64,000 nucleotides of DNA from Narcine bancroftii (taxonomy: Eukaryota). The stretch is taken from contig NC_091473.1 of assembly GCF_036971445.1 (NCBI RefSeq), positions 206,460,001 through 206,524,000 of the forward strand, written 5' to 3'. The translations under genes were made by a program, and so were the position numbers. This document shows, in pieces, positions 2,939 to 53,819 of the stretch (position 1 is the first letter of the stretch; the number at the start of each line of letters is the position of its first letter). The notes under the pieces were generated by a model. That model did no database searches. It worked only from the letters and a program-made list of their open reading frames with translations, and was not told the DNA's origin.

Positions 2939-2944
2939 TGTCAA

Positions 2945-5900: not shown

Positions 5901-6461
5901 GTCTCGTATTAGGGTCTCAATTACCGGCTGTAGACCCTTCCTCCCTTCCAAAGAAATAGGATACTGACGTTTCCTTACCGGCTGATGACCTGGTATTAAT
6001 GTGACATGTAAAGGTGGGATGTCCAGACCTCCTCGATTTCCCTTCTTATACCAGACTCTCTCGTCAATCTGCCGTTCATCCTCCTCCTTCAGAGCACAGA
6101 GGTGGACTCGCACTTCTCCGTCCACGGGGAGAGCACCCAAACCTAGGAGAGCCTGTAAATCTCTTCCTCAGAGGTTAAATCCGGCCGACGGTAACAACAA
6201 GAGGTCCTGTACCCCTTCTCTCCCTTCCAGCTTCACGGTCACTTGGGGATTTATCGATACCGTTCTGGGAGCCCCTTCTATCCCAGAAATTTTCAAATTG
6301 CTTTTTACAGGCTCGGTCCCAATTGGCACAGTTATTACACTACTTCGTTCCGCTCCCGTGTCCACCATAAACACCACCTCTTCTCCCTGGGGACCAATTT
6401 TCAGTTTTACCAAGGGTTCCCTCTTATACTTGGTCCCCAACACCCGGAACCCCTGACCCCC
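2945..6461 (-). pseudogene. pol: pro-pol (protease, RT, RNase H, integrase) of class I ERV
   Basis: Protease FMVDTGA; in-frame stop in NL*GRD; RT IDLKDAF and NVDD (mutated YVDD); RNaseH YIDGS/YTDS; frameshift near 4075; integrase HHCC and QIDF..SDRG..VERMN. Confidence 0.95.
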
Positions 6462-6464
6462 CTA
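6388..6464 (-). promoter_or_regulatory. gag amber stop readthrough signal with predicted H-type pseudoknot
   Basis: TAG GGGGGTCA G GGGTTCC...GGAACCC stem, plus TGGGGACCAA/TTGGTCCCCA second stem; pro is in frame with gag. Confidence 0.8.
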
Positions 6465-7951
6465 ATCTTCTTCCATGAGTTCAAGGGTCCGCACTTCCCT
6501 CTTATATCGGGGGCATTCCCTCTTGAAGTGTCCTTCTTCGTTACAGTAATAGCACTTAGCGGGTCTCCTGGGTCTCCCCTCTCTTGGATATCTTGGGTTG
6601 CTTAGAGGAGGGTTTTGTTTCCTTTCCCCTCTGGACTCGGCATTTATCTGTCGGATAGTCTGTACCATAATCTTCGCTGCCCTCTTTTGACCTTCCTCTT
6701 CCCTCTGCACATATACTCTTTGCGCCTTTTTCAACAGGTCGCTCAAGGGTTTTTCATTCCAGCCCTCCTCCTTTTTTAGTTTCTTCCTAATGTCCTGCCA
6801 CGATTTGGACACAAATTCAATTCGAATAAGCTGTTCACCCATTGGTGTACTAGGGTCCACACCCGCACGCTGTTGGACATTCTTTCTCACCCTCTCCAAG
6901 AAATCAGTAGGGGACTCATCTTTCCCCTGGTGGTTCCCAAATGCCTTGGCGAAATTGTGACCCTTTGGCACAGCCTCCCGTATTCCTTTAATCGTCCACT
7001 CTCTGTATTGTCTCATACTTGCCAATCCCTCGGGTGTTCGTTTGTCCCACCTGGGTTCATTCAGGGGATATTTTTGTTCATGGGGTCTGGGGTCCCCAGG
7101 TTGTTCACGTTCCCACATGAGGAGGGCAGCCTGTCGAATCATCTGCCTCTCCTGGGGTGAGAATAATGTTCCCATTATTGGGTGCATCTCTTCCCAGGTA
7201 TATGTGTTTGGTCCCAGGAACTGGTCGAACTGTTCGGCCAGTCCCATGGGATCTTCCAATAGACTTTTCATTTCCTTCTTAAATCCCCGCACCTCAGTAC
7301 TGGTTAGGGGAACGTTTACATATCCCGTTCCCCCTCCCGGTCCTCCCATAGGAACTTCCCTCAGGGGATTTAGGCTTACTGGAGCCTTCGATGGTCCTGG
7401 ACCAGTCTGGGATCTGGTCCAGGGTCGGTTTACCGGTGGAAGTTTAGGGTCCGACTCCCTTAATCATCCCTTCGTTCCCGGCCCCTTCCGGGACAATCAG
7501 ATTCATCACCTTTCCCCTCCAGCAGCGAGCTTCCCTCGGGTGCAGTGGGCACCGGGGGAACATAAGGAGGGGGGAGGTTGTCCAAAGGTTCCAACTTCTT
7601 TTCTCCCGCTACCCTCAATTTAAAACATTTTGTTAAGGATCCTGGCCAGGGAACCCAACAAAATGCATATGCCGACTCTTCTTGATTCACCTTTTGTCTC
7701 GAGTTTACATATATGTTTAATGCTTGTCTAACCCAATCCTCATCAGATCCAAATTTCGGCCACCAGAACGAGGAACCTTTGATAGGCTGTTTCGACCAAA
7801 GAAGACAATATTGAACCATCTTTTTCTTGTCTTTGTCTCGATATCGTTTACTATCCCAATTTTCAAACATTCTCCCCAAAGGGCTGTCAAGGGGAACCCC
7901 CGGGAAAAGTCCTGATCTTTCAGACGAGCCCTTAGATTTTGATCCTCCCAT
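6462..7951 (-). pseudogene. gag: gag of class I ERV (frameshift near 7460-7500)
   Basis: Myristoylation start MGGSKSK, PPPY late domain, MHR QGKDESPTDFLERV, single zinc knuckle CYYCNEEGHFKREC. Confidence 0.95.
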
Positions 7952-8408
7952 TTTCCCGCCTAGATCCGTTTATCGTTGCTGAGGACCCCCCCCCCCCGTT
8001 CGGGACCCTACTCCCTTTCGTCTCGGACGCCTCGTCGGAGGTACTATCCCTCCGCCGGTTCCCGCCGAGGTTTCCCTGGGGTCTATCCTAAGGTCCCACG
8101 ACAGGGTCCTCACGCCACGACAAAGGCTCTACACCTGATTTATCGTTTTATATTTTTTTAAAATTCCGTCATGACCCTTACCTGGGTGGTCTCGTCCGTC
8201 AATCCCCACACCACAATCGTAAGTAGTCACTTACCGGTGTCTTCCTGGGGATTGAACCGTCACCCCTCTCCTTTTCGTCTTGTCGTGTCACCTTGTCCAG
8301 ATACCACTCGCTCAAGCCGCCCGAGGCGACGAGCAAGGGACTAGGAGCCGCTGAACTCAGCGGGGTGCACCACCTCCGATGTCCCCCTTTCTCACCTCCT
8401 CCCACGGC

Positions 8409-10225
8409 TTATTACATTATGGAACATTATCTGTATATAAAGTTAATTGAGATATAAGTGAAATTTTACCAATGGAGAAGGAGATTATTCAGAATATAAA
8501 AGTATTATAAAATTGAAATGATCTGATAAAATTAAATATTTAGGAATAATTGTAAATACTGAGTATTAATCTTTATATGTTAAATTATGTTCCATTATTA
8601 AAAAAAGATTAAAGCAGGTCTAATTTAGTGGAAAGATCTTCCATTAACTTCACTTGGTCGAGTTAATTGTATTAAGGTGATTTTTTCCTCGTATTCAATA
8701 TTTATTTCAATCAAAACCGTGTTCTCTTACAAAGAGTTTTTTTTCAGGATTTAAATAACGTTACGAGAGAATTTTTATGGAAAGGTAAACTACAATGGCT
8801 AGCATTAAATAAACTCACTTGGAAGTATTAGTTAGGTGGGCTTCAATTACCTGATTTTCAGAATTATTATGAAGCAGCCCAGTTGAAATTTATTAGTAGA
8901 TTGATGGATTTGGTCCAGCCTCCAAGTTGGGCTAAAGTTGAGATGTCCTGTACTCCTGAAGTTGATGTGTATCCATTTATATTTCGATGGAATGTAATTT
9001 TTTTAGGGAATATAATATGCTGATATTAAAACATTTATTAAAATTATGGATTAAAAACCTAAGATTTTAGAATCAAAAGGTAAATTGTCAATTTTAACTC
9101 CATTATATAAAAATCAGCTTATTTATTTTTCAATGTTTAAATGTCATTTAAAGAGTTGGGATTTTAAGGGTATAAAAGCATTACAGGATTGTTTTGTAGA
9201 AGGTCAGTTTCTTTCTTTTACTCAATTGAAAGAGCGTGCTGATATTGCTGAAAATTCTTTATTTGTTTATCATCAACTTCGAACCTCGGTGAAAAATATG
9301 TATGATAGAGAGATGATTTTACCTGTATTGATGGAATTCGAGTCATTTGTTTCTTCTATACCAAAGAGGGGTTACATTTCCGTTATGTATCAAGTATTAC
9401 AAGATGATATGTATAAGTCGGAAAGGGAGAAGTCTAAGCTTAAATGGGAAAATTATCTTGCTTTTGTTTTTCCTGAAGATTACTGGGCAGATATATGTCA
9501 TGATAGTGTTACTAAATTGACGAATGTACGTTTTGAAATGGTTAATTGTATTGGTTTTACATCAATTGTATTTAACACCAGAGAAATTGGAAAAAAAATG
9601 GTTTTAGTAATTCGGATTCTTGTTTTAGATGTGATATATGTACTGGAAATTATTAACATGCTGTCTGGTCTTTAATGTATTTTCAATCATTCCGGGATGA
9701 AATTAAGTTAATTTTGGAAACAATTATATAATTGTAAGTTACCACAAGATCCATCTATTTTTAATGGGTTATATGATTCCTTTAAGGGTATTAGGGTTGG
9801 ATAAATTTCAAATTGCATTTATATATATAGCATTGTCTGTAGCTTGAAAATGTGTAGCGTACATGAAAAGATAATATAGTGATTAATATAATGTGATGGC
9901 ATAATGAATTGAAATCTTGTATTGTCTTGGAAAAAAATACATATAATTTACATGACAATTATTCTATTTTATTAATAAGAGGTTACAATATTTTGAATAT
10001 ATGCATTTAGATATATTTTGATTTATTGTATACATTTAGTTTCTGTTTATATATTTTAGCTCTCCTTAGGAGAGTTGGCAGATGGGATGGGGATTTTGTT
10101 AGAAAAATTTAGTTGTCTTGTTTTTTTTATTTTATTGCCTTTTTAAGGTATACATAAAATTTTCTTTCTGGATTGTACTTTGTATTACTATTAATGACTT
10201 CAAATAAATAAAGTTTAAAAAAAAT
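8409..10225 (+). mobile_element. 5'-truncated L1-clade LINE (ORF2 3' half, 3' UTR, polyA)
   Basis: KYLGI, WKDLPLT.LGRVNCIK remnants, ORF 9085-9675, AATAAA plus A-tail at ~10203-10224. Confidence 0.85.
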
Positions 10226-11733: not shown

Positions 11734-12436
11734 TGCAATTGAAGATTCTAACCTGTTTTTTTTTAATTTGCTGCTCTTGGTATTTAAAGGCTGAGAACCT
11801 GCATGTATTTTAGAATCTGCAGACATAAGCTAAATTCCACCGAGGTGCCAGAGATGCTGTGTACGAAGAACATTTAATCTTCCTGCTTGTTTAGATCACA
11901 GACCGTCAGAGGCCTAGCCTTGATGCAAAATAAATCATTGTATTCAAAGTGATAAGCTGAAAATTATGTTATTCCTTAATAGCCTAGCATGCTAGCTTGC
12001 TTGCTTATCTTTCTTGCTGTGCTGGGAATAGGTGCTTGGGTAAGCAGTTTTTGGGTAATATAAGCCATGGTCCCGCTGCTGAAGAGAGAGACTCTCTGAC
12101 AGGTGGCAACAACTCTCAGCAAGAAGAAGAACTTCTAGAGTCCAGCCAACGTCCCGGTCAGGGGAGGTGGAGAAGATGCTACCGGCGCCCTGACAACCAA
12201 CTACAAGTGTGCAGTCATTGCCTCGCTTCAGCAGTTGGGACCAGTCCAAGCGTTGATAAGTATAGTTGGGAAGGGCTTGCATATTGTAGTGTGAAATCAG
12301 CTTTTGAATTTGTAATAAACATTTGTATAAACTGAACTGCTCTCGGTGTGTGTGTGTGTCTACTTGCTTTCTGTAGCTCATACACTGTGACCAATCTGTA
12401 ATGAACAAAGTCAGAGGTATAAGTTTACCCAAGACA
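11734..12436 (+). repeat. 5' LTR, class III ERV copy 1
   Basis: TG...AAGACA termini; matches 17971-18690 and the reverse complements of 36173-36890 and 42059-42777. Confidence 0.93.
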
Positions 12437-12438
12437 AT

Positions 12439-12456
12439 TGGCGCTGCAAGCAGGAT
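12439..12456 (+). promoter_or_regulatory. Primer binding site, tRNA-Ser(CGA)
   Basis: TGGCGCTGCAAGCAGGAT; combined with copy 2 gives TGGCGCTGTGAGCAGGAT, complementary to the vertebrate tRNA-Ser(CGA) 3' end as I recall it. Confidence 0.8.
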
Positions 12457-12466
12457 TGGTCTCAAG

Positions 12467-14273
12467 ATGTTTCGCCGAAATAAAAAGGTGAGCCCTCAGC
12501 AGTTCTTGATTCCTGAATGGACTTCCAAAGACGATGGGTTTGGCATGTTGGCCAAAACCCTGTCTTTGTTGGGACCACCCATTAGTTGGGATGAGAAATT
12601 AGAATCATCAAGTGCACCTCTGGAATAGCGGGTTGCCACTCTCCTTCGAGAAAGAAAGTTTCCTGATAAAAAGGGGACGCTGACGGATGGTTTTTGGTTG
12701 CTGGCCACAGCCTTGCACTACTCCATTCAGCGTGAAGCAGAATAAGTTCAAAGAGAAGTAGAATCTCAGCACAAGAGAAAGCAATTAGAGGAGCAGCTAG
12801 AAGCCATGCGACAATGCTGTTCCATGATGAGCGAGATTGTTTGCACCAGTCAGGACAGAGCCAAAGAATGGGAAGATAAGCATGTCCAAACGATCTGCCG
12901 TAATATTAAACTCCGGCAGCAGCTCTGTGCAGATAAGGAAAGGCAAGGAGTAGAACCCGATCCATATCGTATTCGTGCCATGATAATTAATGGTGACGAT
13001 CCTGATGTAATTGAGGATTGGGATGGGAATATCTGGAATGACAATGGAAGTAATGCAGATACTCCTCAGCATCTGCCTAACATACTACCTTCTCCACCCG
13101 CTGTTCACACCCGCCCCGTTCGGCAGCTGACTTCCCAAAGAGGCGGAAGGGTGGATGATGTAAGGATAGAGATTGAAGGCATAGATACCCCAGTCTCCCA
13201 AGTGGATCCAGGGGCAAATAACCAAACCCCTAATTATGCCCTATGGCCTACTCCCTCTATGGGATGGCCTCGACCTCCTCCCCAAGACTGGGTGGAGGGC
13301 CCTGCGGGCCAAAGTGGGAACAGGGGTCGGTCGGAAGCAGTCAATGATACGTGACTTCTCTGTAAAAGAGCTGGCTGCCATTGGAGATCGATTAAGGCAA
13401 AAGGCAGGAGAAACTCTGGCAGCCTGGCTCATGCATGTCTGGGAACAAGGATGGGGTAATATATTTTTAACCCCTGAGGAATTGTTGGGATTAGGAACAT
13501 TATCCACTGAAATCAGGGTCACTGCTGAGCTGCGGGATAGAGGGAGAGAGATGGATTACTTACTTTCTACTCTAGGGGATGCCCTGCTACAAGTATACCC
13601 ATCACCAGTAGATTGGGATTTACATTGGCAGAACAATTGGAGAACCCCAGAGGAGGGTATAGAAGTAATTCGTCAATAGGCCCTGGCCTCTGCCTTGTAT
13701 GCAGGGCATTTGAGGCTATGGGTACATAGGGGGAGCCATGATGAAGAGATATTCATGGCTGGAATGCATACTAGATTGTTTCGCTCCACCCAACCCACTA
13801 CACGGGGACTGGTTCTGTCCGAAACTAGTGCGCTAATGGGGCACCCGGTGTCTGAGGCAGTGCACGCCTTATCTGGGCTTCAAGAATTAGAATTTGGAGG
13901 TAAATTCCACTCATGTGCAGCCCAGGTTACAGCAGAAAAGCAGAATGAAAAGAGAGGGGCTGGTGCTAATAATGGACCGACAAGAAAGGACCATTTTCTA
14001 ACCTTGTTAAAGTTAGGCGTACCTAAAAGTGATATTGATTGGAAACCTACTGCAGTCCTTTCTGCCTTTTATAAGAGAAAAACAGGGGAACATCATCCCC
14101 AGCTGTTGAGTCCTCCTGGCCCAGCTGTGCCTTCTGCTCCCACTGCTGCTCCTACTGAGCCAGCTTCTCTTCCTCCAGTTATCCGTGATGAGGTACAACA
14201 ATTAATTAACAAGTCTCTTATGGATAATAGTGGCATGTGGGCCTGGAAGCCCCCGAACCCTACTAAATCATGA
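12467..14273 (+). pseudogene. gag: ERV-L-like gag (stops/frameshifts), no zinc knuckle seen
   Basis: FSVKEL..LRQKAGETLAAWLMHVWEQG..I.L and GVPKSDID.KPTAVL motifs resemble ERV-L/Fv1-type Gag; N-terminal predicted coiled coil. Confidence 0.8.
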
Positions 14274-17200
14274 AGGTGTGGGCAGGGCTCCCGTGTCTAC
14301 ACTATTGAGATATGGCGAATACATGGGGACCCACGGCCCTACATACCGTTAACAATCCATTGGGGTGGGGGTAATGACTGCCAATATTTGGCCTTGGTCG
14401 ATACTCGTGCAGAGCACTTGATGATTCCGGGTAACCCTGACCTCTGGATTGGACCGACATATCGAATAGAGAGGTTGGGAGGAGCGTTCACTCCGGGAAA
14501 GGAAATAAAAGTCCATGCCACGGTGGTTGATAGCCCTTCCCCTGTTTGGTTACATTCCCTGGTTGCTGCTACTGATGAGTGTATCCTGGGAATTAATATG
14601 TTGGCCGGTACGGCCCTTAATACTAGCCAAGGGGGATTTGCATTTGGAATTCGGACTATTGCAAAAAACTAGTAGAGCATCAGGTTAAGTGGGATCCTGT
14701 GATGGTGCCACCCCCCATGAAACCAGTGTGCATTCCACAATATTGTCTCCCTGGAGGGCAAGAAGAGATTACTGACACCTTCGATGCTTTGCACGAAGAA
14801 GGGGTAGTGAGGCCCGCAACGTCGCCCTTTAATAGCCCTGTTTGGCCGGTCCCCAAGCCGGACAGCTCCTGGAGAATGACAGTTGATTATCGCTTTTTGA
14901 ACAAACATGCCCCACCACTTGCTTCAGCAGTTCCGGACATTGTTACCCTTATTGAAAACATTGCTACTGGGAACTCAGGAACATGGTATGCTGTCATCGA
15001 TCTCGCTAACGCCTTCTTCAGTATTCTTATAGCTGAGGACTCTCAGGATCAGTTCACTTTACCTGGAAGGGGCGCCAGTGTACCTTCGCTCGCCTCCCTC
15101 AGGGTTATGTACACTGTCCCACTATTTGCCACAGCCTAATTGCCCGTGATCTTGAGACGGTGCCAGCATTGCCTTCCGTTTCGATTCACCATGATGTTGA
15201 TGATGTGATGATCCAAGGGGCCACAGAAGAAATGGCACAGGAATGATTGGAGAGTGTCCAAGATACCCTGATGCAAAGAGTGTGGGCCTTTAATCCCACT
15301 AAGGTACAGGGCCCGTCCCAGACAGTTATTTTCCATGGAATTCAGTGGCATGCTGAAGAAAAAGTTGTTCCCGATAAAGTTCGCAATAAAATCGCAGACT
15401 TGGCCACTCCTACCAACAAAAATGAGACCCAGCATTTCCTGGGGTTATTGGGATACTGGCGACGCCATGTAACACACTTGGCATGCTTTTACGTCCTCTG
15501 TATAAGGTTACTCGAAAGAAAACAGACTTTGCATGGGTAACAATCAGGAAAGGGCGTTCCAGTCCAGCAAGCAGGCTATTCTTCAGGCCCTGCCCATTTC
15601 TCCCCACATCCCAGATACTCCCTACGAACTACAGGTCTCCGTTACTGATGATGTGGCCTGCTGGTGCCTCTGGCATAAACAAGAGGGTCGCCGATTCCCG
15701 CTGGGATTCTTGTCACATACCATGCCTGAGGCTGCCACTCGTTATTCTGTTTTTGAACAACAGTTACTAGTCTGTTTCTGGGCCATGCTGGAGACTGAAA
15801 GAATGATGGGTGATGCTGAAGTTCAATTGCGACCTGCACTTCCAATAATGAATTGGGTTCTGGCTAATGATGCTAATCTAAAGATCGGGCGAGCTCAGCT
15901 GTCTTCTATTGTTAAATGAAAGTGGTATATTCAGAATAGTGCAACCAGAGGGCCTGAAGGGGTGGGCCGCATACATAAACAGGTGGTTGATCTTCCGTCT
16001 CATCATGAGGACGTTGAACCTGCCTTGCCCCCTCCTTTACTCCCATCACCAGTTCAGTGGGGTAAACCATATGATTTGCTCACTCCAGCAGAACAAGAGG
16101 ATGCCTGGTTTACTGATGGTAGCAGCCGGTGGGTGCAAGGAAAGCAAAAGTGGAAAGCAGTGGCTTACCATCCCAAGTCAGGAACTCACTTATCAGGGGA
16201 GGGAGAATGGTGGCTCCAGTCAGTATGCTGAGTTGAAGGCAGTCTCTTTCCCACTAGATCCCCATGATCACCCTCTTTGCCTGTCTACTGATTCCTGGGC
16301 TGTGGCTAATGGACTTGTGGTATGGATGCCTGATTGGCAAAATAACGACTGGATGATACATGACCGCCCAGTGTGGGGCAAAAGGTTGTGGCAGCTGTTG
16401 TGGGTTGCTTCCCACCACCGTGAGATAAATGTGTATCATGTCTACCCAAATGACCACTCTGTTCATATCCCAATCGAGTCAGGGGGACGGTATCAGCACG
16501 GCTGATATTGGCAACCTGATCTACTACTGCATTATGTTGATGCCCATACCAATGTGGCGACTAACATGGCACAACATAATGCAGTAGCAGATCAGCTTGC
16601 CATTATCAGCCACGCTGATAACATCCCCTGGATCGATGGGCACATGAACAGAGTGGTCATTTGGGGGAGAAGGGATCAGCTATGTGGGCCAGAACACATG
16701 CTTTACCCGTCCATCAGGGTGATGTTCACATGGTCATGCGTACAGGCCCAGAATGTCAACTTGTGAAGTCCCATGTCATTCCTCCTGGTCCGCATGGCCG
16801 AATACAACAGGGTGCTCGCCCAGCTGCGGTTTGGCAAATTGATTACATAGGCACTATCCCAGACTATATGCGTAAACGTTACGTCTTAGTAGTGGTTGAT
16901 ATCTTTTCAGGCCTGGTTTTTGCTTTTCCCACCAAGACGGCTGACCCAGCTAGCAATATCCAAGGACAAAACCATTTAATTTCTCGTTATGATGTTCCAG
17001 ACGAGATTCAGCCTGATAATGGCTCGCACTTCTCCAGAAAGGCAATCTGTGATTGGGCAAATGACAACGGTATCTTATGGGTTCACCATATTCCTTATTA
17101 CCCGCAGGCTGCTGGGTTAGTTGAACGAATGAATGGCTTACTGAAGGAACAAATTCGTTTGTTACATCACTGGGAACCCTGAAGGGGTGGTGTCATGTGC

Positions 17201-17498
17201 TGCAGCAGGCAGTCGACAATTTGAATCATCGCCCTTTAAAAAGGAAGTAAACCTTTCCACTGACTTCTTCACGCTTCTGAACTACAGCCAACTCCAGAGG
17301 GAAAACAATCATTGCCCCCCCCCCACTCCTGAACTAGAGAATGCTGGACAAAAAGTATGAGTGGCACCACCAGGTATTGGCCCTCCAGTAAAAGGAGAAA
17401 TAGTGACACCTGCCCAGGGTAACACTCGGTGGCTGGCTATTGAGGGACAGGATGATTTAGTTTGTTTAAACACTGAACGCTTACGGTATCGTGAGTGA
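14274..17498 (+). pseudogene. pol: pro-pol of class III ERV copy 1
   Basis: LVDT(G)AE protease; FNSPVWPVPKPD.SWRMTVDYR, IDLANAFF; YSVFEQQLL; WFTDGSS; integrase WQIDYIG..DNGSHF..VERMNGLLK. Confidence 0.93.
16445..16665. repeat. ~90-bp inverted duplication inside pol (arms ~16445-16538 and ~16573-16665)
   Basis: First arm is the reverse complement of the downstream RNaseH/IN junction; absent from copy 2. Confidence 0.9.
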
Positions 17499-17499
17499 C

Positions 17500-17947
17500 A
17501 TCTGTCAGGCTTCTTTGTTCGAGGTACTCCGTTTTATGCTCCTGGTGATCTGGCTTAACAGTTGCCTTGGTGCCAACAATTGGATTTGTAATAACGAGGA
17601 CGTTCCAAGGGAGTTGCCCATGGGAGACACGGTCCGATGCATTACATCAAGGAAGTCCTCGGTCACCCGCCTCAAGTGCAGCTTATACAGCTTATATGTT
17701 TTTGTTATTATTCAGCATGTTTCGAATTCTGTTTGTGAGCTCCAACGTCTGGGTATTGTGTCCCACAATGATAGTTTGAGCCTTGGTTGGAATCCCTTTT
17801 CATGATTAGCTGGTACATTTGGGGGGTTGGGCCACACTATTCTCCGTTGGTTCCTCCCTTTATTGCTTGTTTTTCGTGATTATTGTAGTTTTGATTGCTC
17901 TTTTATGGTCTTTTTGTACTCTTATGCTTGTCAAGTCTCGTGTCTGA
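17500..17947 (+). pseudogene. Small type I membrane protein ORF at env position (mini-Env), copy 1
   Basis: Signal-like FMLLVIWLNSCLGA, short Cys-containing ectodomain, WNPFS(W)L, hydrophobic TM; one stop, one frameshift and ATC at the start codon position. Confidence 0.7.
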
Positions 17948-17970
17948 CAGCCTGTGACCAAGGGGTGGAA

Positions 17971-18690
17971 TGTAATGGAAGATTCTAACCTGTTTTTATA
18001 ATTTGCTGCTCTTGGTTTCGCAAGGCTGAGAACCTGCTTGTGTTTTAGAATCAGCAGACATAAGCTAAATTCCACCGAAGGGCCAGAGATGCTGTTTTCT
18101 GAAGAAAGGACATCTGTGTACCAAGAACATTTAATCTTCCTGCTTGTTTTATCACAGACTATTAGAGGCCTAGCCTTGATGCAAAATAAATCATTGTATT
18201 CAAAGTGATATGCTGAAAATTATGTTATTCGTTAATAGCCTAGCATGCTAGCTTGCTTGCTTATCTTTCTTGCTGTGCTGGGAATAGGTGCTTGGGTAAG
18301 CAGTTTTTGGGTAATATAAGCCATGATCTAGCTGCTGAAGGCAGAGACTCTCCGAGAGGTTGCAACATCTTTCAGCAAGTAGAAGAACTTCTATAGTCCA
18401 GCCAATGTCCCGGTCAGTGGAGGTGTGGAAACTGCTACCGGCGCCCTGACAACCAACTACAAGTGTGCTGTCATTGCCTCGCTTCGGCAGTTGGAACCAG
18501 TCCAAGCGTTGATAAGTATAGTTGGGAAGGGCTTGCATATTGTAGTGTGAAATCAGCTTTTGAATTTGTAATAAACATTTGTATAAACTGAACTGCTCTC
18601 GGTGTGTGTGTGTCTATTTTCTTTCGGTAGCTGAAACACTGTGACCAATCTAAAATGAACAAAGTGAGAGGTATAAGTTTACCCAAGACA
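17971..18690 (+). repeat. 3' LTR, class III ERV copy 1 (720 bp)
   Basis: TGTAATGG after PPT, ends AAGACA before TSD ATGGG. Confidence 0.95.
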
Positions 18691-20710: not shown

Positions 20711-22535
20711 CGCAAGATGGCGTTGGAAGAAGACGTGTGCAAACACCTCTACCTAGCTGATCAATTAATGCCCGAATTATAAAGACATTCAAAACTTTTT
20801 CAGAGTGGCTTAAACTTTGTTTACAGCAATAATGAAGAAAACAAGAGGCCAACTAGTGAAGAAATTAATTTTAAAACGTGCAGAAAGTGCAGAAGAACTG
20901 AGTCCTACCTTCCAGAAAGATCCACGGCAATCGATTGGAGAGGCCACGAAACTGCAGAGGTCTCTGAAGATCAAACTGAGAGTTACTCCGGCGACTTCTT
21001 TGCCTTCAGGGACACATAATGGCGCCGGTGTGGTGTGTCGCTGTATGGAGTGGACGGGAGTGCAAGCACTAGACCCGATGCGCGCCCGTCGAGGCCATTG
21101 AGTGTGAAAGCGAGCGCCCTGACCGAGAACGCGAACACGAACGAATGTACGTTGCCGGCGATGTTGCCGTGACGAGCGCAGCGTCTGAGGACGTTCGCCT
21201 CTGCACCTTGGGTGAACTGGGCATGCGTGAAGAGTCATGCATGCACACCACTCCTGATCGCGCCATGGCTGTGGGCGGGATCATCCAAGAAGAAAACGCT
21301 GAAATTCTGGAAGAAGAGGGGGAAACAATTATTATGGATGTATCAAGAATCATGGTAGGTAGGATACAAAGGTTTAAATCTATTCCTTTACAGACATTTA
21401 AAATGTCTGCTGCTGGAGTTGAACCTGTTAATCCTTTACCAGAAGATTTATTTTGAGAATGGATAATATGGCTGTTCATGTGAGTCAAGGTTTTTCAGAA
21501 GTTTCAGAAGTTAAAACCCAATTTGCTGATTTGCGAGGGGAAATGAAAAACATATTTGAAAAGGTTTCTGCCGTTTAAATAGAGTTAAACATTTGAGAGC
21601 TGTGGATACGGTACGAGATAAGTTTTAAAAAAAAAGATTGAGTAGGCTTTTATTAACTGTAATGATAAGGTGGAGAGATATACTGAATGGATGTACTATG
21701 TTGAATATTCCATTACTGGCTGGTATATTCAGATTAAATAATTCCTGATAAAAATCGATTTGTTGGAAAATCAGAGTTGGCCTAATAATGTTAAGACAGT
21801 AGGTCTACCAGAGATATTGAAGGAATGGATCCTCTAAAGATTTTCCGGGAATGAATCCCAAAAACGTTGCTTGAAGAGGCTTTCCGCGAGGGATTGGAAA
21901 TAAATCGAACACATAGAGTGATAAGGAAAAAAAAACTTTCCCGGTTCAATCTGACGGGCAGTTCTTATTCGATGTCTGTAGTATCACGATTGAGAGTTGA
22001 TTTTATGTCTTGTGGTTAAAAAAAAAACACTAATCGAAATCAAAGCCCTTTGATGATTCAACGCAATAGTTTTTTTAGGCCAATTTGAGTCAAGATGTTA
22101 TTAGGAGATACAAAGAATTTAATCCTGCGAAAGCTGTTCTGTGGGAGAAAAGGGTATAGATTTGCCTTACCATTCTTAGCTGTTTCGACGGTGTTTTATG
22201 GAAATTTTCAGGCTCAGTTTGTTTCAAAATTAGAGAGATGCTTTAACCTTTGACAATTCTTTGCCAGATAATGAGGCAAGTTATGAGTTGCACAAGCAGT
22301 CGAATAGGTATTTGAAGAAGAATGGGAATGGAAACAGAAAGAATGCACGAAAAACTCATCGATTCATTGCGATGGAAGGAGAGGATCAAGATGATTGTGA
22401 AATAGCATCTGTGGGCTAAATGTCATTATTTTATATATTTTCGTCTGTGGAGAAAGGTTGTGTGGTGTGGTGGACGACTCTGAAATGTTCGAAGTCGTTT
22501 TGACCACGCCCAGTCTAGAGAGGGTGTATCACTAA
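20711..22535 (+). mobile_element. L1-clade 5' UTR and decayed ORF1
   Basis: Begins near CAAGATGGCG (YY1-type core seen at L1 5' ends); ORF1 remnants LENQSWPNNVKTVGLPEILKE and LEINRTHR. Confidence 0.7.
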
Positions 22536-25194
22536 GGTGGTTTCCCATCTGTCCTATCGAGAATTTAAAGATTCACTAATGTATCTGGAGGTGATGGACC
22601 AGGTTAGGGAAATATGGACCCTCCCAGAATTGTTCACAATTGCGATTGTTACGAGGATCTTAAAGATGGGGAAGTATCCGTTTTTATATTCTTCTTATAG
22701 ACCAATTACCATGCTGAATAATTATTATAAGATTCTTTCCAAGCCCCTGGCAAACAGATTTACGTTGCATTTACCGAAATCTATACACAAAGACCAGGAA
22801 GATTTTGTGCAGGGGAGACAAACGGTGGATAATATTGGCAGACATTTTCCTTTAATACATCTGGTACATATCAGAAATGAGAAGGGATTGGCCGTTTCTT
22901 TGGATGCAGAGAAGGCGTTTGATAGATTGGAGTGGGAATTCTTATTTAAAGTGCTTAACAAGGTGGGGTTATGGTCAATTTTTCTAAATTGGATTAGGAC
23001 GCTCTATCATGCAGCCATAGAAAATGATTATGACCAATGGACAAATCTCTTCAGCTTTCCCACTTACTAGATCTAGAAGACAAGGGTTCCCGCTGTCACC
23101 AGCTCTCTTTGTGCTAGTGATGGAACCACTGGGTGAGGCCATTCGCCAGGATTCAGATATTACAATTTATCGAGTGGGCCAGGAGGAGCACAAAATAAAT
23201 TTATTTGCTGATGACATGCTGGTGCACCTGACAGATTCTGCGACTTCTCTGCTTTAACTGCACGTGTTATTGGAGGCCTATGGGAAACTTTCCATGTATA
23301 AAATCAATTGGGGAAAATGTGAGGTGATGTCACTCACCAAGAAGGATTATATCCATCTTAAAGAAAATTGTAATTTAAAGTGGCCGAAGGGGGGGATCAG
23401 ATACCTATGAGTTAATTTTGAAGGAAACCTGAAAAATTTACACATGTTAAATTACGCCCACGTGATGGAGAGAGTCGTGGAGGATTTAAATAGGCCGATG
23501 TCCCTGCGCATAACATTAGTGGGAAGGATTAACTGTATTAAAATGAATGTGCTGCCAAGACTCCAGTATATTTTCCAGCCAATTCCTGTGTCATTACCCC
23601 ATGGTTTCTTCAAACAGCTGATACACAAGGCCATAATATTTCTCTGGAATGGTAAAGTGGCAAGCGTCTGTATGGTAAAATTTATATGGAAATTCAGTGT
23701 AGGCGGATTGAGTATGCCAGACTTTAAAACATATTACTCGGCAGCCCATTTGAGATACATCACTTCCAGAGTGGAGGTGTATTATCCTGGGCACAAAGTG
23801 ACCTGCACCTGCACGGCAAGAGGATGGCAGAGGTCGTTATTTATAACGTGACGCGAAATTGCTGTCATGAAAGAAGGGCAGCCCCACATAATAATAAAAA
23901 AAAACAAGTGACTAATATCTGGCACCAAATTAACCAATATTTGAACATCAAAGTGGGACTGTCCCCAAAAACGCCCCTGACTCCTAATAAATTAATGTCA
24001 TTTATGGTAAGACCCTGGACACCTGGCACCGTAATGGCGTAGAGGACTGTTAAGAGCATGGACAACTAATGTTATTTCAACAACTCAAAAATAAATAAGA
24101 TTCGTCAAATAAGATATTCCACTGCTACGTTCTTTTTTACCGGACATACTGGGTCCAGGTATGGCCCTACATCGGTGCAGTTCCATAGAGACTATGATTT
24201 GAATGGGAGAGTGAAAAGAAATTCATTTCTGAAATGTATTTCCTGCTCCAGTCGGATGGACCCAAACTGGACCTCCATAGATCGAGAGAAAGATGGGAGA
24301 TGGACTTGGGTGTTGTAATTGATGAGGAATGCTGGTCGATTTTTTTTCGGGACAGCATGACCACGATCATCAATGCAAGGTACAGGGTGGTGCAATCTAA
24401 TTTGTTGCACCAGCTGTACCTAACGTCGCAGAATATAAACAGGTCAAAACCTGAACACTCAGACCAATGATTCAGATGTGGCATGGTGACTGGAACGTTC
24501 ATGCATACATCCTGCTCATGTACAAATGTGTGACCCTTTTGGGAAGAACTAGGCCACGTCCTAGAGAAAATCACAGGTAAACATTTCCCGCAGGTCCCAG
24601 GGTTGTTCCTGTTGATACATCATGCACATAAGACTTACAATAAAGCTGTCCAAATTTCAAGTACAATTTGTGTTAATCGCATTAGCAGTGACCATGAAAT
24701 GCCTTGTGGAAACATGGAAGTCCTACTCTAGTCTTATTATGGAATGATGGAACCATTAAATGCAGTGCTGCGTTCCCCTGGAGAATATAACATGACCTGA
24801 GAAACAGGATCTGGCAGCAGTACATGTGCTACATGGGCACTTGGCGGTGATTGGTTTCCCCGCTTTATGCTGTAGTTTCCTCTCCCTCGCACTGATCCTG
24901 ATTAAAGGAAGGTGACGAATGAATATCTGTCTGGATGCCGCCCATTGAGTTGCGACAATCCCTGCCCCTTGTTTATTATTTATTTTCCTAGTGTTAAAGT
25001 TGTGTTGTTGTTGGTTGACGTTTGAATGATTGGTCTTGCTTTATACGTTGGGGAGGGGGCTGGTAGAGACACGGACTTATATAAGTCATAAAGAGAATGA
25101 ATATATGTATATTGGAATGTGAACTGCCATTTTATATGGCTGTACAACTTTGTGTGAAAATATAAATGCATATTTTTAGTTATAGGAGTGAAAT

Positions 25195-36172: not shown

Positions 36173-36890
36173 TGTCTTGGGTAAACTTATACCTCTCATT
36201 TTGTTCCTTTTAGATTGGTTACAGTGTTTGAGCTACCGAAAGAAAATACACACACCGAGAGCAGTTCAGTTTATACAAATGTTTATTACAAATTCAAAAG
36301 CTGATTTCACACTACAATATGCAAGCCCTTTCCAACTATACTTATCAACGCTTGGACTGGTCCTAACTGCCGAAGCAAGGCTGCGACTGCACACTTGTAG
36401 TTGGTTGTCAGGGCGCGGGTTGCAACTTCTCCACCCCCCCTAACCTGGTCGTTGGCTGGACTCCAGAAGTTCTTCTTCTTGCTGAGAGATGTTGCCACCT
36501 CTCGGAGAGTCTCAAACTTCAGCAGCGGGACCATGCCTTATATTACCCAAAAACTGCTTACCCAAGCTCCTATTCCCAGCGCAGCAAGAAAGATAAACAA
36601 GCAAGCTTGCATGCTAGGCTTCTAACGAATAATGTAATTTTTAGCGTATCACTTTGAATACAATGGTTTATTTTGCATCAAGGCGAGGCCTCTAACAGTC
36701 TGTGACCAAAACAAGCAGGAAGTTTAAATGTTCTTGGTACACAGATGTCCTTTCGTCAGTTAACAGCATCTCTTGCCCCTTGGTGGAATATAGCTTATGT
36801 CTGCTGATTCTAAAACACAAGCAGGTTCTCAGCCTTGCAGAACCCAGAGCTGCAAGTTTTTAAAAAAACAGGTTAGAATCTTCCATTACA
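36173..36890 (-). repeat. 3' LTR, class III ERV copy 2
   Basis: Follows PPT (36891-36902); TG..CA termini. Confidence 0.95.
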
Positions 36891-36913
36891 TTCCACCCCT
36901 TTGTCACAGGCTG

Positions 36914-37347
36914 TCAGACACGAGACTTGACAAGCATAAGAGTAGAATAAGAGAGTAAAAGAGAAATTAAAACTACAACAATCACAAAAACAAGCAATAA
37001 TGCGAGCAACCAACGGAGAATATTGTGACCCAACCCCCCGCCCCCACCCCAAATGTACCAGCTAACCATGAAAAAGGATTCCAACCAAAGCTCACATTAT
37101 CCTTGTTGGCCACAATACCCAGACACTGAAGCTCACGAACAGATTTTGAAAAATGCTGAACAATAACATATTTATATAAGCTGCATTTGAGGCGGGTGAC
37201 TGAGGACTTCCTTGTTGTAATGCATCGGACCGTGTCTCCCACGGGAAACTCACTCACAACGTCCTCGTCATTACAAATCCAATTGTTGGCACCAAAGCAG
37301 CTGTTAAGCGTAAAATGGAGGACCTGGAACAATGAAGCCTGACACAT
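36914..37347 (-). pseudogene. Small type I membrane protein ORF at env position (mini-Env), copy 2
   Basis: ATG 1 nt after pol stop; MCQASLFQVL..NNWICNDED..WNPFSWL; frameshift in G-run; TM LRWLLALLLVFVIVVVLISLLL; ends KSRV*. Confidence 0.7.
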
Positions 37348-37348
37348 G

Positions 37349-40267
37349 TCATTCACGATGCCGTAAGCATTCAGTGTTTAAACAGACTAAATCAGCCTTT
37401 CCCACAATAGCTACCCACCGAATGTTACCCTGGGCAGGTGTCACTATTTCCCCTTTTGCAGGAGGGCCACTACCTGGTGGTGCCATTCATACCTGTTGTC
37501 CGGCATTCTCTAGTTCGGGAATGGGGGACAATGATTGTTTTTCCTCTGGAATAGTCTGTAGTTAAGAAATGTGAAGAAGTCGGTGGAAAGGTGAACCTCC
37601 TTTTAAAGGTCGATTATTTAAATTGTCGACTGCTTGCTGAAGCACATGACACCACACCTTCAGGTTTCCCAGTGGTGTTAACAAACGAATTTGTTCCTTC
37701 AGTAAGCCATTCATTCGTTCAACTAACCCAGAAGCCTGCGGGTAATAAGGAATATGGTGAACCCATAAGATACCGTTGTCATTTGCCCAATCACAGATTG
37801 CCTTCCCGGAGAAGTGCAAGCCATTATCAGACTGAATTTCCTCTGGAACATCATAATGAGAAATTAAATGATTTAATCCTTGGAAAGTACTAGCTTGGTC
37901 AGCCGTCTAGGTGAGAAAATCAAAAATCAGGCCCGAAAAGGTGTCAACAATTACTAGGACGTAACGATTACCCATACAGTCTGGCATAGGGCCTATGTAA
38001 TCAATTTGCCAAAGCGCAGCTGGGTGAGCACCCCGTTTTTTTCGGCCATGAGGACCAGGAGGAACGACATAGGACTTCACAAGTTGATATTCTGGGCATG
38101 TACGCACGACCATGCGGACATCATCCTGATGGATGGGTAAAGCATGTGTATGGGCCCACATAGCTGATCTCTTCTCCCCCAAATGACCACTCTGTTTATG
38201 TGCCCATCGAGCCAGGGGGACGGTAACAGCACGGGTGATAGTGGCAAGCTGATCTGCAACTGCATTATGTTGTGCCATGTTAGTCGCCACATTAGTATGG
38301 GCATCAACGTGATACACGATTATCTCACAGTGGTGGGAAGCATCCCGCAACAGCTGCCACAACGGTTTGCCCCACACTGGGCTGTAATGTATCATCCAGT
38401 CATTCTTTTGCCAATCAGGCATCCATACCACAGGTCCATTAGACACAGTCCAGGAATCAGTAAGCAGGCGAAGTGAGTGATCATTGGTGAAGGGGGTAAG
38501 GGAGGGGGCAAGGCAGGTTCTACGTCCTCATGATGAGACGGAAGATCAGCCACCTGTTCGTGTATGCGCCCCACCCCTTCAGGCCCTCTGGTTGCACGAC
38601 TCTGAATATACCACTTCCATTTAACCATAGAAGATTGCTGCGCCCGTCCGATCTTTAGATTAGCATCATTAGCCAGAACCCAATTCATTAGTGGAAGTGC
38701 AGGTCGCAATTGATCATCTGCATCACCTGTCATTTTTTCAGTCTCCAGCAGGGCCAAGTAACCGGCTAGTAACTGTTGTTCAAAAGGAGAATAACAAGTG
38801 GCAGCCTCAGGCATGTTACGTGACCAGAATCCCAGCGGATTCGGCGACCCTCTTGTTTCTGCCAGAGGCTCCAGCAGGCCACATCATCAGTAACGGAGAC
38901 CTGTATGTTCGTAGGGGGTATCTGGGATGAGGGGAGCAACGGGCAGGGGCTGAAGAATAGCCTGCTTGGTGGACTGCAATGCCCTTTCCTGATCGTTACC
39001 CCATACAAAGTCTGTTTTATTTCGGGTAACCTTATACAGAGGACGTAAAAGCAATGCCAAGTGTGGAATATGGCGTCGCCAGAATCCCAATAACCCCAGG
39101 AAACGCTGGGTCTCATTTTTGTTGGTAGGAGTGGCCAAGTCTGCGATTTTATTGAGAACTTCATAGGCAACAACTTTTTCTCCAGCATGCCACTGAATTC
39201 CAAGGAAAATAACTGTCTGGGACGGGCCCTGTACCTTGGCGGGGTTTATGGCCCACCCACTTTGCATTAGGGTATCTTGAACACTCTCCTAACCTTCTTG
39301 TGCCATCTCTTCTGTGGCCCCTTGGATCATCACAGCATCAATATAATGGTGATTCGAGAGGGAAGGCAATACTGGCACCGTCTCCAGATCACGGGCAATT
39401 AGGCTGTGGCAAATAGTGGGAGAGTGTACATAAACCTGAGGGAGACGAGCGAAGGTATACTGGCGCCCCTTCCAGGTAAAGCGAACTGATCCTGAGAGTC
39501 CTCAGCTATAAGAATACTGAAGAAGGCGTTAGCAAGATCAGTCACACCATACCATGTTCCTGAGTTCCCAGTAGCAATGTTTTCGATAAGGGTAACAATG
39601 TCCGTAACTGCTAAACCAAGTGGTGGGGCAGGTTACTTCAAAAAGCGATAATCAACTGTCATTCTCCAGGAGCCGTCCGGCTTCTGGACTGGCCAAACAG
39701 GGCTCTTAAAGGGCGATGTTGCGGGCCTCACTACCCCTTCTTCTTGCAAAGAGTCAATGGTGGCACTAATCTCTTCTCGCCCTCCTGGGAGGCGATATTG
39801 TGGAATGCGCACTGGTTTCATGGGGGGTGGCACCATCACAGGATCCCACTTAGCCTGACCCACTACTATTTTTTTTTTTGTAATAGTCCGAATTCCAAAT
39901 GCAAATCCCCCTTGTGTAGTATTAAGGGCCGTACCGGCCAACATATTAATACCCAGGATACACTCGTCAGTAGTAGCCACCAGGGCATGTAACCAGATAG
40001 GGGAAGGGCTATCACCCACTGTGGCAAGGACGTTTATTTCCTTTGCCAGGGTGACCGCTCCTCCTAACGCCTCTATTCAAAAGGTCAGTCCAGTCCAGAG
40101 GTCGGGGTTACCCAGAATCACCGAGTGCTCCGCACCAGTATCGACCAAGCGAAATATTGGCGGTCATTACCCCCAGCCCAATGGATTGTTAATGGTATGT
40201 AGGGCCGTGGGTCCCCGTGTATCCGCCGTATCTCAATGGTGTAGACACGTGAGCCCTGCCCACAACT
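37349..40267 (-). pseudogene. pol: pro-pol of class III ERV copy 2
   Basis: VDTGAE, SPVWPVQKPDGSWRMTVDYR, YIDA (mutated YIDD), WQIDYIGP, VERMNGLLK. Confidence 0.93.
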
Positions 40268-42028
40268 TCATGCTTTAGTAAGATTCGGGGGCCTCCAGGC
40301 CCACATGCTACTATTATTCAGAAGAGCCTTGTTAACCATTTGTTGTACCTCATCACGGGTAACTGGAGCAGGAGAAGCCGGCTCGATAGAAGCAGCAGGG
40401 GGAGCAGAGGCTACAGCTGGGCGAGGACGACTCAGCAGCTTGGGATGATGTTCCCCTTCTTTTCTCTAATAAAGGGCATAAAGGACTGCAGTAGGTTTCC
40501 CATCAACATCACTTTTAGGTACGCTTAACTTTAACAAGGTTAGAAAAATGTCCTTTCTTGTCTGTCCGTTATTAGCAGCAGCCCCTCTCTTTTCATCCTG
40601 CTTGTCTGATGTAACCTGGGCTGTAGGTGAGTGGAGTTTACCTCCCAACTCTAATTCTCGAAACCCAGATAAGGCCTGTACCGCCTCAGACACAGGGTGC
40701 CCAATTAGCGGACTAGTTATGGACAGAACCAGTCCCCGTGTAGTGGGTTGGGTGGAACGAACCAGTCTGGTATGTATTCTGGCCGTCAATATCTCTTCAT
40801 CATGGCTCCCCCTATGTACCCATAGCCTCAAATGCCCTGCATACAAGGCAGAGGCCAGGGCCTGTTGACGAATTACTGCTACAACCTCCTCCGAGTTTCT
40901 CCAATTGTTCTGCAAATGTAAATCCCAATCTACTGGTGATGGGTACACTCATAGCAGGGCATCTCCTAGAGTAGTAAGTAAGTAATCCATCTCTCTCCCT
41001 CTACCCCGCAGCTCAGCAGTGACCCTGATTTCAATGGATAATGTTCCTAATCCCTACAATTCATCGGGAGTTAAAAATATATTACCCCCTCCTTGTTCCC
41101 AGACATGCATGAGCCAGGCTGCCAGAGTTTCTCCTGCCTTTTGCCTTAATCGATCTCCAATGGCAGCCAGCTCTTTTACAGAGAAGTCACGTATCATTGA
41201 CTGCTTCTGACCCCTGTTCCTTCTTTGGCCCGCAGAGCCCTCCACCCAGTCTATGGGAGGAGGTCGAGGCCATCCCATAGAGGGAGTGGGCCACAGAGCA
41301 TAAGCAAGGATTTGGGAATTTTCCCCTGGGTCCACATCATCCCCCCTTCCGTCTGTTTGGGAAGTCAGCTGCCTTATAGGGCGTGAGTGAACAGCAGGTG
41401 GAGAAAATAATGTGTTAGACACATGCTGAGGAGTATCTGCATTATTACCATTGTCATCATTCCAGATATTCCCATCCCAATCCTCAATTACATCAGGATC
41501 ATCACCATTCCTTATCACGGCACGAATACGATATGGATCGGGTTCTACTCCTTGTCTTTCCTTATCTGCACAGAGCTGCTGCCGGAGTTTAATATTACAG
41601 CAGATTGTTTGGACATGCTTATCTTCCCATTCTTTGGCTCTGTCCTGACTGGTGCGAACAATCTCACTCACCATGGAACAGCATTGTCACATTGCTTCTA
41701 GCTCCTCCTCTAATTGCTTTTTCTTGCGCTGAGATTCTACTTCTCTTTGAACTGATTCTGCTTCACGCTGAACGGAGTGGCGTAAGGATGTGGCCAGCAA
41801 CCAAAAACCATCCGTCAGCGTCCCCTTTTTATCAAGAAATTTACTTTCTCGAATGAGAGTGGCACCCCACTCTCCCAGAGGTGCAATTGATTAATCAAAT
41901 TTTTCATCCCAACTAATGGGTGGTCCCAACAAAAACAGATTCTGTTCTTCCAAAGACCCATCATCTTTGGAAGTCCATTCTGGAATCAAGAACTGCTCAG
42001 GGCTCACCTCTTTCTTTTGGCGAAACAT
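40268..42028 (-). pseudogene. gag: ERV-L-like gag, copy 2
   Basis: ORFs 41891-42085, 41054-41674, 40466-40948 homologous to copy 1 gag. Confidence 0.8.
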
Positions 42029-42038
42029 CGTGAGACCA

Positions 42039-42056
42039 ATCCTGCTCACAGGGCCA
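42039..42056 (-). promoter_or_regulatory. Primer binding site, tRNA-Ser(CGA)
   Basis: TGGCCCTGTGAGCAGGAT, 2 nt after the LTR. Confidence 0.8.
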
Positions 42057-42058
42057 AT

Positions 42059-42777
42059 TGTCTTGGGCAAACTTATACCTCTCATTTTGTTCGTTTTAGA
42101 TTGGTCACAGTGTTGGAGCTACCGAAAGAAAATAGACACACACACCGAGAGCAGTTCAGTTTATACAAATGTTTATTACAAATTCAAAAGCTGATTTCAC
42201 ACTACAATATGCAAGCCCTTCCCAACTATACTTATCAACGCTTGGACTGATCCCAACTGCTGAAGCAAGGCTACAACTGCACACTTGTAGTTGGTTGTCA
42301 GGGCGCCGGTAGCAACTTGTCCACCTCCCCTGACCGGGACGTTGGCTGGACTCCAGAAGTTCTTCTTCTTGCTGAGACATGTTGCCACCTCTCGGAGAGT
42401 CTCAAACTTCAGCAGCGGGACCATGGCTTATATTACCCAAAAACTGCTTACCCAAGCACCTATTACCAGCTCAGCAAGAAAGATAAGCAAGCAAGCTAGC
42501 ATGCTAGGCTTCTAACGAATAACATAATTTTCAGCTTATCACTTTGAATACAATGGTTTATTATGCATCAAGGCGAGGCCTCTGACAATCTGTGACCAAA
42601 ACAAGCAGGAAGATTAAATGTTCTTGGTAAACAGCAGATGTCCTTACGACAGCTAACAGCATCTCTGGCCCCTTGGTGGAATTTAGCTTATGTCTGCTGT
42701 TTCTAAAACACAAGCAGGTTCTCAGCCTTGCAGAACCCAGAGCTGCAAGTTTAAAAAGGTTAGAATCTTCCATTACA
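42059..42777 (-). repeat. 5' LTR, class III ERV copy 2
   Basis: Matches the other three LTRs; TG..CA termini. Confidence 0.95.
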
Positions 42778-52925: not shown

Positions 52926-53364
52926 CAATCTGTCTCAGTTGATGTGCGCTTACAGGTGGCTTTTTTTACATGTGACGTGTATTTCATCTATTTATCCTTC
53001 ACAAATTATAGCAGAAAATCTGCTATAACATAATTTGGAGGAATTCGGAAACAAGAGAGACACACAAATACATTCATAAAAACAGGTTCCACGTGATTTT
53101 TTTTTGCAGCTGAGGGATTTCTTCTTTTCCAAAAAAAATGTTCGACAACCACAAATGTTCAGCAGTGCATCACAGGTGCATCATCTATTATTGCAAATGT
53201 AGAGATTCAAGAGATATATTTGGCATCGAGCATCATGAAAACCATCAGTGCACCTGTAGCTAGAGCCCGGTTGACATGCTAGAAAATTATTTGAACGGCA
53301 GAAAACCGCAGATATCAGAGTGCAAAGCTTACACAAGGATTCAGCGGATCTGCATGGCACAGCG

Positions 53365-53403
53365 AGTTTCTGTATGAGTGCGTGATCGGTTTGCCTCATT
53401 GTG
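53365..53403 (-). promoter_or_regulatory. 23-RSS of TCR V
   Basis: CACAATG, 23 nt, ACAGAAACT. Confidence 0.92.
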
Positions 53404-53710
53404 CGTCGCAATGCGCAGTAATAACTGGCAGAATCGTTGAGCACCAGTCCTGCGATATGCAAACTGATGAATTTAGTCATAGTTTGGAGTTCAGCGGTGA
53501 AACGAAGTGAGGCGAATTCTGCTTTTCCTTCAAAATTATCGCTGTCCTTCCACAGAATATACTGAAGCAGTGTGCCTGGTTGTTGACGATACCAGAATAA
53601 GCTACAGCTATCCGAGTTGATATTATAGGCACACTTTAAGGTCACGGATTCTCCTTCAGCCTTTAATTCTGACGACATCAAGTGTGTGACTGATTCTCCA
53701 TCGCAGTGGT
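53404..53710 (-). CDS. TCR alpha/delta V exon, apparently functional
   Basis: ESVT..EGESVTLKCAY..LFWYRQQPG..LQYIL..DSASYYCALR; acceptor TTTGCAG; 23-RSS. Confidence 0.93.
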
Positions 53711-53819
53711 CTGCAAAAGAAATTAAAGAGGAAACTATCAAACAGGCGAGATTAGAATTTTCGGATCATAAAATGTTTCAAAGGAGTGGGAAAATGTAAT
53801 ATGTTTTCTGCATAATTAC

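Follow-up and report, generated by a model that had tools for sequence, protein, structure and literature searches.

An in-frame 1092-nt env deletion in an ERV-S-like endogenous retrovirus family of the ray Narcine bancroftii

Relatives of the element and its two copies in the window

The Xenopus tropicalis element XtERV-S is a class III endogenous retrovirus (ERV) with a class I env (PMC8278194), and a gamma-type env in ERVs of cartilaginous fish, as well as the pairing of class III pol with class I env, have been reported (bioRxiv 10.1101/2021.11.23.469661). Amplifying env-deleted ERVs are also on record: one env deletion is common to 29 of 43 copies of the cat FcERV, and cat FcERV-gamma6, bat MLERV1_3 and the IAP "superspreaders" are of this kind (PMC4643047, IAP as cited there). 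We analyzed a window of 64,000 nt of N. bancroftii (contig NC_091473.1, positions 206,460,001 to 206,524,000), in which a sequence-only reading had noticed two copies of one LTR element with about 450 nt between the pol stop and the polypurine tract. Indeed, two such proviruses were found, copy 1 at 11734..18690 on the plus strand and copy 2 at 36173..42777 on the minus strand; they belong to one LTR element, are ~88% identical to each other, and both have the spacing of ~450 nt. Judged by its sequence, the element belongs to an ERV-S-like class III family and derives from it by env deletion.

Copy 1 has broken gag and pol genes and a deleted env, and 4 of the 5 bp of its target site duplication (TSD) match. 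Its 5' LTR (11734..12436) and 3' LTR (17971..18690) differ at 48 of 698 aligned sites; a primer-binding site (PBS) of the tRNA-Ser type lies at 12439..12456, the first seven gag codons at 12467..12487, the pol stop codon at 17496..17498 and the polypurine tract at 17960..17970, all on the plus strand. Within copy 1 pol, ~96-100 nt at 16445-16544 match adjoining pol sequence in inverted orientation. Copy 2, on the minus strand, likewise has broken gag and pol genes and a 5-bp TSD with 4 matching positions; its LTRs (42059-42777 and 36173-36890) differ at 40 of 712 aligned sites, and the first seven gag codons are found at 42008..42028. A pattern derived from the PBS had six matches, two of which were the host genes for tRNA-Ser(CGA) and tRNA-Ser(TGA).

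According to the available sections of PMC8278194, XtERV-S shares with the ray family a class III-type pol that carries YIDD, in-frame gag and pol genes separated by a TGA, a Gag without myristoylation signal or zinc knuckle, a tRNA-Ser PBS, a 5-bp TSD and a gamma-type spliced env that begins at the pol stop, and internally deleted copies are known there as well. The ray Gag has neither a zinc knuckle nor Gag_p30. In contrast to XtERV-S, the ray family has no dUTPase after integrase (1043-aa Pol, aligned to a 1145-aa Xenopus Pol), and its splice donor lies inside gag, past the PBS, whereas PMC8278194 predicts a donor upstream of the PBS. Furthermore, the deleted Xenopus copies lose most of the internal sequence, and an in-frame Env remnant is not described in those sections. 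The nearest reverse transcriptases (RTs) are stingray, amphibian and bird ERV proteins (50-66%), several of them with dUTPase, and the class III label rests on the shared features. No description of the ray family was found in the open-access literature; the supplements of bioRxiv 10.1101/2021.11.23.469661 may list it.

The short frame and its parent env gene

The stretch between pol and the polypurine tract had been read as one intact ORF of about 148 aa, hidden behind two differently damaged copies, that replaces env. In copy 1 (17500..17947, plus strand), codon 1 at 17500 is not ATG, 9 nt are duplicated at a junction, and an in-frame stop (17803-17805) and a 1-nt frameshift (near 17875) follow. 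In copy 2 (36914..37347, minus strand), the ATG at 37347 stands one base after the pol stop, exactly as noted before (TGA-C-ATG), a 15-nt deletion affects the signal region and an 11-nt insertion shifts the frame. A DNA search against the ray's own genome, 3.33 Gb in size, yielded 1593 candidates, of which 40 were scored, and with a strict motif, intact 145-aa ATG frames were present in 5 of 30 loci (7 loci unparsed). Among the older deleted copies, 18 of 41 are open from the splice acceptor to the usual stop, and among the younger ones 58 of 72. Since unbroken natural copies exist outside the window, the short frame is not a product of chance. Thus, an intact ORF does stand behind the broken copies, but with a length of 145 aa in natural copies and 140 aa in the younger subfamily, in which a 2-nt frameshift rewrites the tail. 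The topology that had been noticed also held: a hydrophobic N terminus, a C-terminal transmembrane helix (TM) at residues 114-132 of 145 and a tail of 9-13 residues are predicted, and furin site, fusion peptide, ISD and CX6CC, as well as HR1, are absent from the product.

Natural unbroken copies (P0001 and P0007) served as queries. Searches of Pfam and PDB sequences with the 145-aa protein gave no useful match, and the ESM Atlas returned only viral glycoproteins at 0.79-0.83, which is under its lead threshold. A structural comparison with Env TM subunits had been suggested; the single-sequence AlphaFold model was poor (pLDDT 59, pTM 0.28) and Foldseek found no match at an E of ≤0.001, and the model was set aside. 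A search for homologs of near-equal length found a gene model of the same family as its sole match. Among 1.84 billion representatives, phmmer gave four matches, namely a 493-aa stingray Env (P0006, TLV_coat), a 335-aa Env piece of the ray's own genome (P0005) and two gene models. The P0005 piece was located in the own genome with 100% identity over 335 aa, and when both halves of the short protein were compared with the ends of the stingray Env, the scores exceeded those of all 2000 shuffles.

Relatives with a full-length env, which had been proposed as a means of mapping a deletion, were in fact found in the same family. P0005 and P0006, used to search the ray's own genome, yielded 124 and 88 matches, respectively, many with open frames of 513-520 codons; twenty of these matches, examined with their flanks, belong to the LTR family of the window copies. 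A natural 509-aa Env (P0008) matched TLV_coat with an E of 1e-13 and, as its best PDB match, Syncytin-1 with an E of 3e-15, and it contains CWVC, the furin site RHKR, the ISD LQNRMALD and CX6CC. The short protein is 90% identical to the two ends of P0008, with one gap of 364 codons, and all the elements missing from it, from furin site to CX6CC, lie inside these codons. On this alignment the short frame is the family's own gamma-type env with the middle 70% lost, in which the signal peptide and the first ~40 SU residues are fused to the TM end. The ORF therefore does not replace env but is env with an internal deletion; of the two origins considered earlier, the minimized in-frame Env was traced to the nucleotide, and the new accessory protein was refuted by the identity of both halves to the family's Env.

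Of the first 30 integrase-end matches, 26 had a net env deletion of 1092 nt, as did 11 of 20 further loci picked for their absence from the junction list. Six other large env deletions were each present in a single copy, and four of them were out of frame. With exact patterns, we counted 510 deletion junctions versus 100 undeleted 5' sides in the genome, about 5 to 1, both numbers being lower bounds from patterns that favor young copies; a tail pattern (427 matches) was not used as a subfamily count, since full-length copies match it too. A shared deletion that takes most of env, and a deleted form that outnumbers the env-bearing one, are also features of FcERV-gamma6, MLERV1_3 and IAP in the available text of PMC4643047. 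Unlike in those elements as described there, the ray deletion is in frame, the copies retain splice sites, signal region and TM, and young copies with open frames coexist.

Both endpoints of the deletion could be read directly from the copies and their full-length relatives, and each carries the heptamer TGTTATT within a longer imperfect repeat. In the type A junction, found in most copies and in copy 2 (near 37165), the ends are joined at the TGTTATT core; in the type B junction, found in a minority and in copy 1 (17679..17712, where the 9-nt duplication lies), the joint lies slightly upstream, with the register unchanged. The frame of the deletion is fixed because its endpoints sit on the direct repeat. 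The in-frame state was thus set by the repeat spacing, which makes it one event with a prior of one in three. Copy-choice by reverse transcriptase is an established retroviral mechanism, and template switching at the direct repeat is the likely cause that would have removed the 1092 nt. Type B requires a full-length template and therefore a second deletion or recombination. In a tree of the 5' piece (169 sequences), older deleted and full-length copies were intermixed with weak support, and repeated deletion and recombination were inseparable. An intron in place of a deletion was ruled out, since the junction retains the bases that flank the candidate GT and AG.

Splicing and the start of Env

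In avian sarcoma-leukosis virus, Env takes its start and first residues from Gag by means of a donor inside gag (PMC8220723). A comparable arrangement was observed in the ray family. In the proviruses whose 5' end was found, both window copies included, the donor follows gag codon 7 (GT at 12488 in copy 1; directly after the seven codons at 42008..42028 in copy 2), and the env acceptor is located at codon 8/9 of the env start, at 17521..17523 in copy 1, where it is degenerate, and ending at 37324 in copy 2. In full-length loci (58 of 60 parsed), codon 1 was ATG in 14, TTG in 25, ATA in 18 and ATT in 1, and codon 8 was CAG in 57. In the deleted copies (85 of 90 parsed), ATG was present in 83 and a YAG acceptor in 84. 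Young full-length env frames (L114, L116-L118) have TTG at the position of the deleted copies' ATG, which is consistent with a start from the gag leader. From these data, Env starts at the Gag ATG via splicing from the gag-internal donor, which explains the start; the leader exon provides the Env start and the basic n-region of the signal. As far as PMC8220723 describes it, the virus borrows six gag codons, compared with seven in the ray family, and it is a class II alpharetrovirus rather than a class III ERV; in the ray, the borrowed residues abut the hydrophobic core.

With a spliced start at the Gag ATG, the termination-reinitiation proposed for the short frame is not needed and found no support. 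That the frame encodes a new accessory protein or a FAST/sORF2-like fusogen which replaced env and is made by termination-reinitiation is hence hardly credible. Its 140-145 aa, its one TM helix and, in 83 of 85 deleted copies, the ATG one base past the pol stop would suit such a protein, and sORF2/FAST, too, is a short ORF that follows pol in an LTR element and has a single membrane pass (PMC11952523). However, the ray frame is env-derived end to end, which refutes the proposed origin, 44 of 58 full-length env copies lack the ATG, and at 8 of the 30 loci screened with the strict motif codon 8 is a stop, with the YAG acceptor nonetheless retained. Moreover, sORF2/FAST proteins, in the part of PMC11952523 that deals with them, have a central TM, a small myristoylated or acylated ectodomain, a polybasic patch and a long amphipathic tail, whereas the ray product has a signal peptide, a C-terminal TM and a tail of only 9-13 residues, without a myristoylation motif (residue 2 is not Gly) or a long basic amphipathic tail.

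A spliced mRNA had been suggested as a check, and the expression data consisted of assembled contigs from four sequencing runs of one study, guessed to be RNA. A joint that skips 4234 nt at the predicted place was present in all four runs, with exact GT..AG in three (aligned to a younger deleted copy), and contigs covered the env region of that copy. We also found a natural provirus with the spliced structure (L231, G000:C17:157297336), which consists of LTR, PBS, the seven gag codons and an env of the full type. Copying from spliced env RNA is feasible because the donor lies downstream of the PBS. L231 differs at 7 of 40 bases past the acceptor and is therefore likely not the source of the exact joints; older full-length copies, with 1-4 differences there, could account for them. 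Thus, the splice itself was seen, but the joint could stem from older full-length copies as well as from deleted ones. The acceptor point is also where two public gene models enter env. In the gene models P0004 and P0003, host exons are spliced into the env acceptor, and in one gene model the short membrane-anchored frame is predicted to be fused to a cupin/JmjC protein (HSPB1-associated protein 1, isoform X4).

Selection on the short frame and spread of the deleted copies

The earlier suggestion that the ORF is kept for a non-fusion role was addressed with 72 younger and 41 older deleted copies and 33 older and 21 younger full-length copies, taken from the first 90 of the 510 junction matches, the top DNA matches and the fetched env loci after copies that failed the alignment filter had been dropped. 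Variants were classed against the commonest codon of each column, CpG sites were set aside, and variants in at least three copies were called shared. In the short frame of older deleted copies (40 copies), the nonsynonymous-to-synonymous (N:S) count was 30:7 for shared and 122:38 for private variants (ratio 1.33, P = 0.67), whereas in their integrase (39 copies) it was 29:35 versus 312:96 (ratio 0.25, P < 1e-4). For younger deleted copies, the counts were 7:4 versus 40:18 in the short frame (P = 0.73) and 25:22 versus 133:61 in integrase (P = 0.06), where constraint was thus not clear. Purifying selection on the short frame was thus detected neither in the older nor in the younger deleted copies, with a test that is weak on these codons because the same codons look neutral in older full-length copies (32:14 versus 87:33, ratio 0.87, P = 0.70). 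The whole env gene of the latter is constrained (ratio 0.49, P = 0.0003), and the signal sits in the codons lost by the deletion (ratio 0.40). Between the two full-length lineages, the kept codons have a dN/dS of 0.33. Many shared variants, found in deleted and full-length copies alike, are older than the deletion or have crossed it. On the stem leading to the younger subfamily, 4 N and 2 S changes fell in the short frame, near the neutral share of 0.71, compared with 11 N and 14 S on the stem of the younger full-length lineage (P = 0.39, tiny counts). Two of the four N changes are at positions shared with the stingray Env, and one lies in the region of the inferred signal cleavage site.

Older copies had 0.71 lesions per 100 codons in the short frame versus 0.86 in integrase (P = 0.36), and younger copies, counted copy by copy, had 0.15 versus 0.42 per 100 codons; as distinct events, the latter amount to 8 versus 34 (P = 0.23). 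Two stops and one 23-nt deletion were each present in two younger copies, and no lesion upstream of the tail was common to three or more. By these counts from a weak test, selection on the short frame is neither shown nor excluded.

We consider it probable that the short frame, the family's own env with a 1092-nt in-frame deletion, travels as a passenger without a job in copies that spread without a working Env; a chance in-frame deletion, which had been named as the finding that would speak against a new system, is the best-fitting reading. The frame would be open because 364 codons separate the repeat copies and because the younger copies are too recent to have decayed much. That the sole amplified env deletion is in frame, that the splice sites are retained and that lesions per younger copy are rarer than in integrase argue against a mere relic. 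These observations would be accounted for if selection had kept a non-fusogenic mini-Env that is translated from the spliced mRNA, sits in the membrane and benefits element or host, for instance because its HR2/TM part poisons full-length Env trimers or because it aids particle traffic; so would the retained frame, signal region and TM, the 58 open frames among 72 younger copies and the spliced joint in four of four runs of one study. Truncated Envs with antiviral roles exist as well: Refrex-1, FeLIX and suppressyn are Env-derived, non-fusogenic and begin with an Env signal peptide (PMC9245640). As described there, those proteins are soluble, keep the N-terminal SU region and stem from single or few loci, whereas the ray product keeps ~40 SU residues together with the TM, and its copies number in the hundreds, with no selection signal detected. 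Shared amino acid changes show no deficit, stem changes fall on conserved positions, the tail is frameshifted and the joint may come from full-length copies. With most of SU, ISD and HR1 lost, the parts by which receptor interference and ISD-type immune modulation are known to work are missing. We therefore regard the selected mini-Env as unlikely. Equally doubtful is its extension, a defective-interfering retroelement whose spliced, membrane-anchored mini-Env acts on full-length Env or particle traffic and helped the deleted copies, riding on intact helpers, to reach five to one.

If RNA of the deleted copies is spliced, it would yield a type I membrane protein of ~140 aa, composed of seven Gag residues, the Env signal region, ~40 SU residues, the HR2 end, the membrane-proximal region, the TM and a short tail. 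Such a product should be unable to fuse membranes because furin site, fusion peptide, HR1, ISD, CWVC and CX6CC are lost. For the older deleted copies, the constraint on integrase indicates that they may have copied themselves, and they would have spread by their own Gag-Pol or by helpers. In the younger deleted copies, LTR pairs are 97.7-100% identical where both were found, and with young full-length copies they share 97% identity in the 5' part of gag-pol. In 13 of 13 copies examined, which came from a protein search, three in-frame pol deletions (66, 450 and 177 nt) lie in the RT/RNase H region and remove RT motifs; this largest subfamily also carries the tail frameshift. Having lost the RT motifs, the younger copies would need RT in trans. 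Helpers could have provided for such spread, as some young copies still have gag, pol and env open. The large younger subfamily would then take its enzymes, and any Env, from intact relatives. One copy with near-full-length env has the three pol deletions too (set L061-L072, L078, L119), pointing to recombination between lineages.

These pol deletions also bear on a quite improbable alternative, in which defective genomes with open frames escape RNA decay or are packaged better, so that in-frame deletions are favored throughout the element. All three are in frame although they remove RT motifs, and an older shared pair (563 + 283 nt) is in frame in sum. However, genomic RNA should not be the template for env translation, so the env frame should not matter there; the pol frame was perhaps kept for integrase instead, and the single env event had its prior of one in three.

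With the env deletion as a probable passenger, the family offers a clean, well-sampled env loss in a still-young class III family of cartilaginous fish, in which parent and deleted forms coexist, breakpoints are mapped and nonautonomous copies dominate. Although it does not amount to a new system, it can serve studies of how viruses turn into retrotransposons in hosts other than mammals, and an Env start borrowed from Gag adds a small point for class III elements. Should the short product turn out to be functional, it would represent a novel type of accessory protein derived from Env.

At one locus (L065 and L066; G000:C183:30000-49999), younger deleted proviruses form a head-to-tail array of near-identical units with a period of 5467 nt. 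In the window itself, a separate class I (gamma/epsilon-like) ERV occupies 1198-7969 on the minus strand, with Gag_p30, a zinc knuckle, a TLV_coat env piece and pol in two long frames of 720 and 345 aa. A fragment at 22519-23067 on the plus strand encodes a reverse transcriptase (RVT_1, E of 1.9e-15) and is probably a LINE. An Ig V-set exon was found at 53184-53765 on the minus strand (E of 1.9e-11), and a related stretch at 9080-9982 on the plus strand is 68.5% identical and inverted, which points to duplicated, clustered immune-type genes surrounding the proviruses.
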